Assembly: GCA_964343245.1 (NCBI GenBank)
Contig: CAYFIU010000002.1
Location: 1-37,065, forward strand
Reading direction: 5' to 3'
DNA from: Candidatus Woesearchaeota archaeon
GTDB lineage: Archaea > Nanobdellota > Nanobdellia > SCGC-AAA011-G17 > GW2011-AR17
Length of the DNA: 37,065 nt
The notes under the pieces are model-generated. The model did not search any database. It was not told the origin of the DNA and worked only from the letters and a program-made list of their open reading frames with translations. The position numbers and the translations under genes were made by a program. How positions within the stretch are numbered: the first letter of the stretch is position 1; each line of letters begins with the position of its first letter. Shown piece after piece: positions 18,085 through 20,282 of this stretch.

Positions 18085-20282
18085 ATGACAGATAAAACTA
18101 CAGAAGCAATTGGAAAATTAATGAAAATTCCTACTCAAATTAGAAATATTGGTGTTGCTGCGCATATTTTTTGTTAAGTTTTGGCTTACAAAAGTGCTGA
18201 GATCACGGCAAAACAACATTCTCTGATAACTTATTAGCAGGTGCTGGTATGATTTCAGAAGAGTTAGCAGGTAAACAGCTTGCATTGGACTTTCATTCAG
18301 ACGAACAAGAGAGAGGTATCACAATTGATTCAGCAAGTGTTTCAATGTTGCACAATTGGGATGATAAAGATTATTTAATTAACTTGATTGATACACCTGG
18401 TCACGTTGACTTTGGTGGTGATGTAACAAGGGCAATGAGGGCTGTTGATGGTGCTATTGTTCTTTGTTGTGCTGTTGAGGGTATTATGCCTCAAACAGAG
18501 ACAGTTCTTAGGCAAGCTTTGAAAGAGTTAGTTAAGCCTGTTTTGTTTATCAACAAAGTTGATAGGCTGATTAAGGAAGTAAAGTTAACACCTGAAGCAA
18601 TGCAGCAAAAGTTTATGAAAATTATTGATGATGTAAATGGATTGATTGCAAAGATTGCACCTGAAGGTTATGGTGATAAGTGGCAGTTGTCTGTTCAAGA
18701 TGGTTCTGTTGCTTTTGGTTCTGCTTTCCACAATTGGGGTTTGTCTTTTCCTTACATGCAGAAGAAAGGTTTAACTTTCAAAGATGTTATTGATGCTTAT
18801 GAGAATGATGACCATAAAGGTCTTGCAAAAAAGGCACCAATTCATGAAGTTGTGTTGAACATGTGTATCAAACATCATCCTGATCCAAAGGTGGCACAAG
18901 TTTATAGAATTCCAAGAATCTGGCATGGTGAAGTTGATACTGAATTAGGTAAAGCTTTGATGACTTGTGATCCAAGTGGGCCTGTTGCTGCATCTGCGAT
19001 TAAGATTGTTGTTGATAAGCATGCAGGTGAAGTTGCAACATGCAGGTTGTTCTCTGGAACTTTGAAACATGGTCAGGAAGTTTACATGACTATGGCTAAG
19101 AAAAAAGTTCGGTTACAGCAGTTGTCTATTTACAAAGGTGCAAAAAGAGTTACAATGGAAGAGGTTAACGCTGGTAACATTGTTGGTCTTGTTGGTTTGA
19201 AAGGGATTTTTGCAGGAGAAACTGTTTCAACTGTTGAAAATATTGAACCTTTTGAAGCGATTAAACACATTTTTGATCCTGTTATTACAAAAAGTATTGA
19301 AGCTACAACTGCAGCTGATTTGCCTAAGCTAATTGAACTTTTGAAACAGGTTGCTAAAGAAGATCCAACAATTAAAGTTGAAATTAATGAAGAGACTGGT
19401 GAAAACTTGATGTCTGGTATGGGTGAGTTGCATTTAGAAGTTGTTGAAAACAGAATGTTGGCTGAGAAAGGGTTGAAAGTTAAAACATCTCCACCAATTG
19501 TTGTTTACAGGGAAACTGTTGGTAAGTTGTCTGGACAGTTTGAAGGAAAGTCTCCAAACAAACATAACAAGTTGTACTTTGTTGTTGAACCTTTGGAGGA
19601 TAATGTGTATGATGCAATTAAAGCTGGTGACATCCCTGAAGGTAAAGTTAGGAAAAAGGATACTGTTTTGTTTGCAAAGTTGCAAGAGCTTGGTTATGAG
19701 ACTAAAGTTTCTAAAAAAGTTACAGATATCTATAATGGAAATCTTTTGGTTGATGATACAAGAGGTATTGTACATATTGGTGAGATCATGAGTTTAGTAA
19801 TTGAGGGTTTTGAAGATGTTATGAAAGCTGGTGTACTTGCAAGAGAGCCTTGTTCAAAAGTTAAGGTTATGTTGAAAGATTGTAAGTTGCACGAAGATAC
19901 TATCCACAGAGGGCCTGCACAGATGTTGCCTGCTGTAAGAGATGGTATCAGGACTGCAATGGCTGATGCAAAAGCTTCAATTCTGGAACCTATTCAGGAG
20001 ATGTTGATTGAAGGTCCTGCTGATACTATGGGTGAAATTTCTCGTTTAGTACAGAACAAGAGAGGACAGTTGATGAATATGGACCAAGAGGGTGATCAAT
20101 TAACTGTTAAAGCTGCATTGCCTGTTGCTGAAATCTTTGGTTGGAGTTCTGATCTAAGATCTGCTACTAGAGGAAGAGGAAGCAGTTTTATTGTTGATCA
20201 GAGATTTGAGAAGTTGCCTGAAAGTTTGGCACCAAAAGTAATTGGTCAGATTCGTGACAGAAAAGGTTTGAAAGCTGAGTAA
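18085..20282 (+). CDS. fusA: translation elongation factor aEF-2, split by a 32-nt intervening sequence (exon 1 18085..18167, exon 2 18200..20282; 721 aa after joining)
   Basis: Exon 1 encodes MTDKTTEAIGKLMKIPTQIRNIGVAAHI. Exon 2 continues [21 protein letters not shown]..., then 'DTPGHVDF', 'NKVDR' and the rest. The ORF track only calls from the internal Met at 18249. Confidence 0.85.
18168..18199 (+). other. candidate bulge-helix-bulge (BHB) intron inside the EF-2 P-loop codons
   Basis: The central 4-bp helix pairs 18162-18165 with 18194-18197. The 3-nt bulges are 18166-18168 and 18198-18200. The inner stem pairs 18169-18173 with 18189-18193, then 18175-18178 with 18185-18188. Cleavage after the 2nd bulge nucleotide restores GCG CAU AUA GAU CAC (A-H-I-D-H). 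Confidence 0.7.

Follow-up and report, generated by a model that had tools for sequence, protein, structure and literature searches.

A bulge-helix-bulge (BHB) intron in the pre-mRNA of cbf5 is reportedly known from Crenarchaeota through the work of Watanabe in 2002 and of Yoshinari in 2006. The BHB intron of the crenarchaeal cbf5 pre-mRNA also figures in Yokobori 2009 (PMC2738675), and a 2023 review (PMC10485636) names cbf5 and HVO_1309 as the archaeal mRNAs that are spliced by the tRNA endonuclease, with more cases to be expected. Here we compare these cases with a candidate locus, the gene for archaeal elongation factor 2 (aEF-2) on a stretch of 37,065 nucleotides (nt) from a Candidatus Woesearchaeota archaeon (contig CAYFIU010000002.1 of assembly GCA_964343245.1, forward strand), to which we refer as the window. 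An earlier note on this DNA had proposed that a BHB intron splits the gene and had stated that splicing of this type was demonstrated only for cbf5; the second statement is dated, as HVO_1309 of Haloferax volcanii is now also regarded as a spliced archaeal mRNA (PMC10485636). The literature that we searched, including a study of aEF-2 evolution (PMC6143161), mentions no intron or intein in aEF-2, with most subscription journals outside its coverage and an earlier description therefore possible.

Judged from sequence comparison, positions 18168-18199 of the window very probably constitute a 32-nt archaeal BHB intron, placed in the codons of the G1 motif (P-loop) of aEF-2 in a marine, Woesearchaeota-like host of the DPANN group. 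This interpretation is supported by inserts at the same site in relatives, by cuts that the BHB rule predicts, by covariation, by a bias at synonymous exon sites, by the ratio of nonsynonymous to synonymous substitution rates (dN/dS), and by independent assemblies.

The interrupted P-loop codons of aEF-2

The aEF-2 frame that opens at the ATG at 18085 reads MTDKTTEAIGKLMKIPTQIRNIGVAAHIFC and is terminated by a TAA at 18175-18177 (direct reading and translation); the continuation of the protein is found in the +2 frame from 18201, directly 3' of a TGA at 18198-18200, and extends to 20282. When the 32 nt at 18168-18199 are deleted, the sequence becomes ...GCG CAU AU joined to A GAU CAC..., which restores AHIDHGKTT and a 721-amino-acid (aa) aEF-2, with NIGVAAHIDHGK as the peptide across the splice junction. 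Residues 1-28 of related proteins are matched by exon 1 of the spliced protein (tblastn), and the gene stands in a conserved neighbourhood, adjoining EF-1alpha and uS10. The next ATG after the break, at 18249, would give a protein without the P-loop. The start at 18085 with its GGAGGG Shine-Dalgarno sequence and TATA box (by direct reading), the break at the TAA at 18175 with a restart at 18201 after the TGA (by reading, the listing of open reading frames, and translation), and the restoration of AHIDHGKTT with an AUA isoleucine codon by removal of exactly these 32 nt (on translation) all agree with the earlier note. The public gene calls, on the two assembled contigs L138 and L139 and corresponding to 18085-18177 and 18249-20282 of the window, consist of a 30-aa open reading frame (ORF) and a 677-aa "EF-2", whose start at Met45 leaves out the P-loop.

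We encoded the BHB rule as a 4-base-pair (bp) central helix H, each of whose strands is followed on its 3' side by a 3-nt bulge that is cut after its second base, with further helices on the inner (h') and outer (h) sides. With this notation, the features of the locus are as follows:

18030-18037, + strand: TATA-like box TTTATATA 5' of EF-2, read directly, of presumed function
18071-18076, + strand: Shine-Dalgarno-like GGAGGG, 8 nt 5' of the ATG, read directly
18085-18167, + strand: predicted aEF-2 exon 1, codons 1-27 (MTDKTTEAIGKLMKIPTQIRNIGVAAH) and the AU of Ile28, from direct reading and translation
18161, + strand: C of the outer-helix pair C18161-G18201, the sole pair outside the 3' bulge (h_out = 1)
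18162-18165, + strand: 5' strand of central helix H, GCAU (exon 1), pairing with 18194-18197
18166-18168, + strand: 5' bulge AUU, with a predicted cut after U18167, from the minimum-energy fold and the BHB-rule scan
18168-18199, + strand: candidate 32-nt intron, whose removal restores AHIDHGKTT, with BHB geometry at this cut pair
18169-18193, + strand: inner hairpin h', with 18169-18174 paired to 18188-18193, U18175 bulged, an apical stem of 18176-18179 with 18184-18187, and the loop 18180-18183
18175-18177, + strand: in-frame TAA, terminating translation of unspliced RNA after 30 codons
18194-18197, + strand: 3' strand of central helix H, GUGC (intron), from the minimum-energy fold, the rule scan, covariation and RNAalifold
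18198-18200, + strand: 3' bulge UGA, with a predicted cut after G18199, closed outside by one pair and hence part of a relaxed motif
18200-20282, + strand: predicted aEF-2 exon 2, the third base of Ile28 and then DHGKTT... to the stop, from translation and the Pfam domains of the 677-aa product

In the ViennaRNA minimum-energy fold of 18150-18215, the central helix forms together with the 5' bulge and the hairpin, and 18198-18205 stay unpaired. All four pairs of the central helix that had been proposed (G18162-C18197, C18163-G18196, A18164-U18195 and U18165-G18194) exist, as does the 3-nt bulge 18166-18168; the proposed hairpin is likewise there, although its register of 18169-73 plus 18175-78 is an equivalent alternative to the minimum-energy fold, which pairs 18169-18174 and bulges U18175. 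The hairpin contains the UAAG...CUUA motif that is common to many members of the family described below. The reservation of the earlier note about a weak outer helix holds, as C18161-G18201 alone pairs outside the 3' bulge. The window has what defines a BHB motif, a 4-bp helix with a 3-nt bulge to the 3' side of either strand; it does not have the strict hBHBh' form, in which both bulges are closed by helices of at least 2 bp: the inner helix is there, with 6 + 4 bp, but the outer one amounts to a single C-G followed by G.A.

AHIDHGKTT is restored by only two cut pairs in the window, namely 18167/18199 (H = 4, h' = 6, h = 1) and one other with H = 2. In a background scan of the window (H = 4, h' at least 5, h at least 1, length 20-50), in which ~1.15 million pairs were tested on the + strand and geometry-only hits serve as a background rate only, the chance that a frame-restoring cut pair has the full BHB geometry came to ~3e-4. 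This is suggestive and not decisive, and the case therefore rests on the comparison with relatives.

Same-site inserts in relatives and the predicted splicing

A search of contigs in the one-genome-per-species GTDB set with the spliced EF-2 gave 229 relatives, the best 80 of which were used for the comparison of loci; all 80 belong to metagenome-assembled genomes (MAGs) of Woesearchaeota, Nanoarchaeota or Pacearchaeota. The closest relative of the window, 86% identical, is uninterrupted. In the 80 loci the P-loop region shows three states by tblastn: uninterrupted (the majority), with a short frame-breaking insert, and with a long in-frame insert. The short frame-breaking insert lies at residues 28-30 and is present in 13 of the 80 (L008, L026, L039, L043, L050, L055, L065, L071, L074, L075, L077, L078 and L080). 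A scan of metagenomes with a degenerate DNA pattern, which allowed 20-50 extra bases between CAYAT and CAYGGNAARAC, matched 57 contigs, of which 50 are genuine; the other seven were rejected as an unrelated, uninterrupted GTPase. The insert that had been looked for in related fusA loci is hence found at the same place, both among the GTDB species representatives (13/80) and in metagenomes (50 contigs). After removal of duplicates, 51 distinct insert sequences remained, which fall into class A (18, window included) and class B (33). No interruption was seen by tblastn at other EF-2 positions in any locus, and the P-loop of EF-1alpha carries no intron of the same kind in 46 loci.

The two classes differ in register. 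In class A the 5' cut falls after CAY-AU, at the second base of the Ile28 codon, and the introns measure 28-34 nt; exon GCAU forms the central helix with intron GUGC (H = 4 bp in 16 of 18), the 5' bulge is AUA or AUU in all 18, and an inner helix of 3-10 bp is present in every member except L093. In class B the cut falls 4 nt further on, after GAY of Asp29, and the introns measure 24-43 nt; exon AUCG or AUUG forms the central helix with intron CGAU or CAAU, and exon CCAU forms an outer helix of 4-5 bp with exon AUGG. Class B is thus a canonical hBHBh' motif, whereas the class A motif of the window is a relaxed one of the HBh' type. Among the 51 distinct sequences, the in-frame cut pair with the best fit is almost always the one given by the BHB rule; the exceptions are L078/L110 and, weakly, L093. 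Introns of both classes (L050, L080, L083, L055, L074, L101 and others) are built alike, with a 5-6-bp stem, a one-base bulge, an apical AAG...CUU stem and a loop of 4-6 nt; the apical stem has the form UAAG...CUUA in 8/18 class A and 23/33 class B sequences. A stop codon starts at intron nucleotide 8 in 9/18 class A and at nucleotide 7 in 25/33 class B introns, and an in-frame stop usually lies within nucleotides 7-10. Shared ancestry, a site for protein binding, or selection that favours early termination on unspliced RNA could each account for this common architecture.

To assess the agreement of the inserts with the named structure, we counted pairs on register-fixed alignments, with the 3' partners slid by 1-3 columns and 500 shuffles as controls. 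For class A, standard pairs occupy 90.7% of cells against 30-58% when slid, with a covariation score of 0.589 against 0.183 for the best slid alignment; for class B the corresponding values are 84.8% against 33-37%, and 0.442 against 0.119. The observed score was reached in 0/500 shuffles for either class. Double compensatory changes occur in 7/12 pairs of class A, where inner-helix positions 1-6 are paired in 83-94% of sequences and compensatory changes are found at positions 2-7. The central helix covaries with synonymous changes in the exon, from GCG-CAU:GUGC to GCC-CAC:GUGG in class A and from AUC-G:CGAU to AUU-G:CAAU in class B. RNAalifold, applied to the natural, unfitted class A sequences, recovers the 4-bp helix, the 3-nt bulge and the inner helix, with compensatory changes in 6/10 pairs and no outer helix. 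What is conserved among the homologues is structure rather than sequence.

The exons carry a matching signal, as their synonymous positions are biased toward the bases that helix pairing needs. Intron-bearing alleles of class B have GCC for Ala26 in 27/33 cases against 9/56 intronless alleles (p = 9e-10) and CAU for His30 in 31/33 against 25/56 (p = 1e-6), and those of class A have GCG for Ala26 in 14/18 against 12/56 (p = 3e-5), all by Fisher tests that are uncorrected for phylogeny.

The splicing that we propose would proceed as follows. In the pre-mRNA, exon GCAU (18162-65) would pair with intron GUGC (18194-97) to form the 4-bp central helix, bordered on its inner side by the 3-nt bulge 18166-68 and the 6+4-bp intron hairpin and on its outer side by the 3-nt bulge 18198-200, which one C-G pair would close. 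The tRNA-splicing endonuclease EndA would cut after U18167 and after G18199, with 2',3'-cyclic phosphate and 5'-OH ends as the expected result, and an RtcB-type ligase would join the exons into ...GCG CAU AUA GAU CAC..., the codons of AHIDHGKTT, with ATTGGTGTTGCTGCGCATAT joined to AGATCACGGCAAAACAACAT at the predicted exon junction. The intron would probably be released as a circle, whose predicted junction is ...CAAAAGTGCTG joined to TTTTTGTTAAG.... Unspliced RNA would yield a 30-residue peptide only, so that EF-2 synthesis would depend on splicing. EndA and RtcB are near-universal in Archaea, and we infer from the motif that they are the enzymes, together with the chemistry of the cuts, and that the EndA of this lineage can cope with the relaxed 3' side (HBh' type) of class A. 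According to Kaneta et al. 2018 (PMC5829648), efficient cutting of relaxed BHB motifs (HBh', hBH) requires an EndA that carries a specificity loop; the same paper reports an L3 loop in EndAs of diverse DPANN lineages, where it is associated with more disrupted tRNA genes.

Several points weigh against the BHB-intron interpretation. The energy of the 66-nt fold is unremarkable (z = 0.16, with 111/200 shuffles folding equally well), so that the fold of the single sequence proves nothing on its own, and the relaxed geometry arises by chance at many places in the window (191 on the + strand, 47 on the - strand). The outer helix consists of a single C-G pair followed by G.A in 18/18 class A sequences, and an EndA of strict specificity would be expected to cut such a one-pair motif poorly (PMC5829648). 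Two identical members, L078 (226-256) and L110, restore the frame only with a 4-nt 3' bulge (...CGAG-CAG/CAU, with the slash at the cut), and only 1/4 of their central pairs forms in the strict register. The registers used for covariation were picked by the best BHB score among 1-4 in-frame options, a mild circularity that is offset by the RNAalifold result, and the phylogenetic correction lacking from the Fisher tests belongs here as well. Neither an EndA nor an RtcB gene is among the 40 ORFs of the 37-kb window. On the other side, the gene is otherwise intact and under selection in all 18 class A members despite their one-pair outer helix, which argues that the motif is processed.

Alternative explanations, mobility and neighbouring genes

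That the window comes from a metagenome assembly is all that can be said for the 32 nt being an assembly or sequencing artefact, an explanation whose probability we consider negligible. A Tara Oceans scaffold (L139; SAMEA2619974, listed for three samples) carries a 100% identical allele that spans the intron, and L138, from a second ENA assembly and probably the window's own contig, is 99.98% identical and spans it too, whereas a further 100% identical contig (L141) does not cover the intron. Misassembly is therefore ruled out by identical intron-spanning sequence in separately assembled contigs from different ENA assemblies, the Tara Oceans scaffold among them, and dozens of other assemblies hold homologous but different inserts. 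If the gene were a decaying pseudogene, with a second, intact aEF-2 elsewhere in the genome, the broken frame and the 30-aa and 677-aa fragments of the gene callers would be explained; however, the break is the sole lesion in 2.2 kb, the further lesions that the earlier note associated with a pseudogene having been looked for and no second one found. The gene is under purifying selection, with a dN/dS of 0.125 relative to L001 (dS 0.73) and 0.105 relative to L002 (dS range 0.7-1.4), its start signals are intact, its place beside EF-1alpha and uS10 is kept, and the same kind of structured insert interrupts the same codons in 51 distinct sequences, all of which makes decay very unlikely. Translational bypassing of the type of phage T4 gene 60, or another form of recoding that skips the 32 nt and needs no RNA splicing, would find a superficial likeness in the stop that closely follows the break and in the hairpin in the gap. 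We consider it extremely unlikely, as the take-off and landing codons mismatch (AUU and UGA in the window, GAU and variable triplets such as UUA or GUG in class B) and as a conserved 4-bp exon-intron helix with two 3-nt bulges would be of no use to bypassing.

The BHB intron could instead serve as a regulatory device, the output of EF-2 being tuned by the rate of EndA/RtcB splicing or by translation of exon 1 competing with formation of the BHB motif. A functional P-loop requires splicing, the central helix is made of exon-1 codons that a translating ribosome would unwind, and an in-frame stop recurs at an early intron position, all of which would suit such a role. The closest relatives have no intron, however, and any regulatory role would thus be dispensable and not conserved, while stop codons arise by chance in AT-rich introns; we hold regulation to be improbable. 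The patchy distribution of the intron makes the role of a neutral or selfish passenger more probable than that of a regulator.

Other intervening sequences were considered for the site and rejected. An intein, as an in-frame insertion that begins with Cys, Ser or Thr and ends in HN before another such residue, does not fit an insert whose length of 32 nt breaks the frame and which includes a TAA, and a group I or group II self-splicing intron would need a ribozyme core of hundreds of nucleotides; tRNA-Val was the sole match in an Rfam search of the window. One contig (L140; ENA ERZ11848503 NODE_14680) encodes an uninterrupted 717-aa EF-2 at 285-2438 and an identical EF-1alpha. Its identity to the window is 100% from ~260 nt 3' of the intron site onwards but only ~70% over the first 340 nt of EF-2, and BLASTN gives no alignment further upstream. 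We rejected it as a clean intronless allele: it is either an assembly chimera formed at a conserved stretch or a real recombinant in which the intron-bearing 5' end was replaced.

A further possibility, which extends the BHB-intron interpretation and which we put forward only tentatively, is that the insert is a small mobile element which has entered the P-loop codons of aEF-2 again and again by horizontal spread, being tolerated only because splicing by EndA and RtcB erases it. Such an element would be the counterpart, at the level of RNA, of the homing inteins that lie 9-13 nt 3' of it in relatives. On a neighbour-joining (NJ) tree of EF-2 the introns are scattered, with the sister of the window (L001) and its next relatives lacking one, and sister pairs carry different classes (L130 A and L094 B; L091 A and L098 B). 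Identity between the window's intron and those of L050 and L124 reaches 88% and 85%, respectively, at EF-2 protein identities of only 66-69% and with saturated dS; intron identity at that EF-2 distance is typically 58% (95th percentile 70%). The architecture and the apical UAAG...CUUA stem common to both classes, the inteins in the same motif in ~11/80 relatives, and two genomes with both an intron and an intein point the same way. Nevertheless, no mechanism for the movement of BHB introns is established, the intron encodes no protein and shows no visible target-site duplication, the NJ tree is crude, and constraint on sequence within a subfamily, or ancestral presence with many losses, could give the same pattern. 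In a comparison of the window with L050 and L001 for conversion tracts, the flanks of the intron are the most conserved codons of the gene. The idea in its full form seems doubtful to us: the 24-43-nt inserts would be mobile BHB mini-introns that home into the aEF-2 P-loop in two registers 4 nt, or one helix-length, apart and move horizontally among Woesearchaeota, Pacearchaeota and Nanoarchaeota, each with a hairpin and a 4-nt exon-binding guide that would let the host's tRNA-splicing machinery erase it from the mRNA.

The long in-frame inserts are canonical inteins in the aEF-2 P-loop of relatives, placed after Lys32 and 9-13 nt 3' of the intron sites (AHIDHGK/C...VIHN/TTFSDN, with slashes at the intein ends), and come in sizes of ~220 aa (mini-intein) and ~510 aa:

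L012, 1366-3100: aEF-2 intein
L059, 3001-3860: aEF-2 intein
L072, 1477-3100: aEF-2 intein
L015, L028, L036, L049, L067 and L070: aEF-2 inteins as well

Two loci have both kinds of insert, 9 nt apart in each: L043 (JBBSWJ010000005.1) has a class B intron of 33 nt at 3088-3120 (H = 4, inner 6, outer 5) and an intein, and L071 (JAGWAC010000024.1) has a class B intron of 39 nt at 2416-2454 and an intein. These genomes would combine an RNA-level and a protein-level intervening sequence in one motif.

Elsewhere in the window, the GyrB gene at 34087-36987 (- strand) also contains an intein (Pfam Intein_splicing, residues 342-765 of the ORF), between the DNA_gyraseB and Toprim domains; the idea of a GyrB without its N-terminus was rejected, as the gene runs off the end of the window and the N-terminus is merely cut off. 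Two paralogous genes for class II tRNA synthetases of the Asp/Asn type flank a gene for a 355-aa TGT-domain protein (861-2141 and 3693-4946, - strand; 6095-9245, - strand), with GatE-like and GatD genes nearby. These synthetase, TGT-domain, GatE-like and GatD genes are ordinary translation-related genes, and none appears interrupted. No intron was reported among the tRNAs of 43 related loci, where only 8 tRNAs were found, a sample that says nothing on the splicing machinery. A general screen of the window and all loci for other BHB-interrupted ORFs was abandoned, as its 351 matches were mostly noise; it required 150 nt of open frame upstream, and most EF-2 controls were missed because their intron lies 83 nt from the ATG. 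The + strand of the window shows relaxed BHB geometry four times as often as the - strand, in keeping with its G+T richness (T 39%, G 19.5%) and the G-U pairs that this composition promotes. A BHB scan by geometry alone can therefore not be relied on in such genomes.

Significance and comparison with known systems

If the interpretation is true, aEF-2 would be the third archaeal gene with mRNA splicing by the tRNA endonuclease, beside cbf5 and HVO_1309, and would be represented by a whole family with clear covariation and not by a single example. The aEF-2 introns appear to be the first mRNA case in DPANN and the first in a core translation factor, and the cell would need EndA and RtcB to make an essential GTPase. 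The varying presence between sister lineages, the two registers and the co-occurring inteins provide a natural data set for the gain, loss and possible transfer of BHB introns. There is also a consequence for annotation. In a 2026 preprint on 208 complete Nanobdellota genomes, the count of split genes serves mainly to set an upper limit to assembly frameshifts; since gene callers split aEF-2 into a 30-aa product and a 677-aa product without the P-loop, aEF-2 in intron-bearing DPANN genomes is liable to mis-annotation, to exclusion from marker sets and to being called a pseudogene.

The aEF-2 introns resemble the cbf5 intron in their removal by the tRNA-splicing endonuclease and a ligase, which we propose here by analogy, and in a patchy gain and loss among related lineages. 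They differ from it in that an essential translation GTPase is cut within its P-loop in a DPANN host, a case known here from sequence alone, and in having two registers 4 nt apart and at least 51 distinct members with covariation. With HVO_1309, whose mRNA EndA cuts at a BHB motif (PMC10485636), they share the presence of a likely EndA substrate in an mRNA outside Crenarchaeota. HVO_1309 shows that BHB splicing of mRNA reaches beyond cbf5; it is, however, a single gene in one species and has experimental support, whereas the aEF-2 introns are computational only.

The likeness to pre-tRNA introns at position 37/38 is one of geometry, seen in the 4-bp exon-intron helix, the pair of 3-nt bulges and the cut that follows the second base in either of them. 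In class B it extends to the spliced exons, which would form a 4-bp stem with a 7-nt loop and place the junction between loop positions 6 and 7, like that of an anticodon loop. The host RNA, in contrast, is an mRNA without a tRNA body, and class A has no more than one C-G pair as its stem outside the 3' bulge. Like homing inteins, the aEF-2 introns look like parasitic insertions in the most conserved codons of an essential gene, are patchy, and would be removed after transcription; inteins, however, are in frame, are removed at the level of the protein and often encode a homing endonuclease, while the 32-nt intron is out of frame, includes a stop and encodes nothing. A parallel outside Archaea is the splicing of HAC1/XBP1 by Ire1 together with tRNA ligase or RtcB, which likewise concerns a short mRNA intron that is independent of the spliceosome, is defined by RNA structure, calls on a tRNA-type ligase and changes the reading frame; it differs from the splicing predicted for aEF-2 in using the Ire1 endonuclease and a motif of two stem-loops, and in being regulated by stress in eukaryotes.

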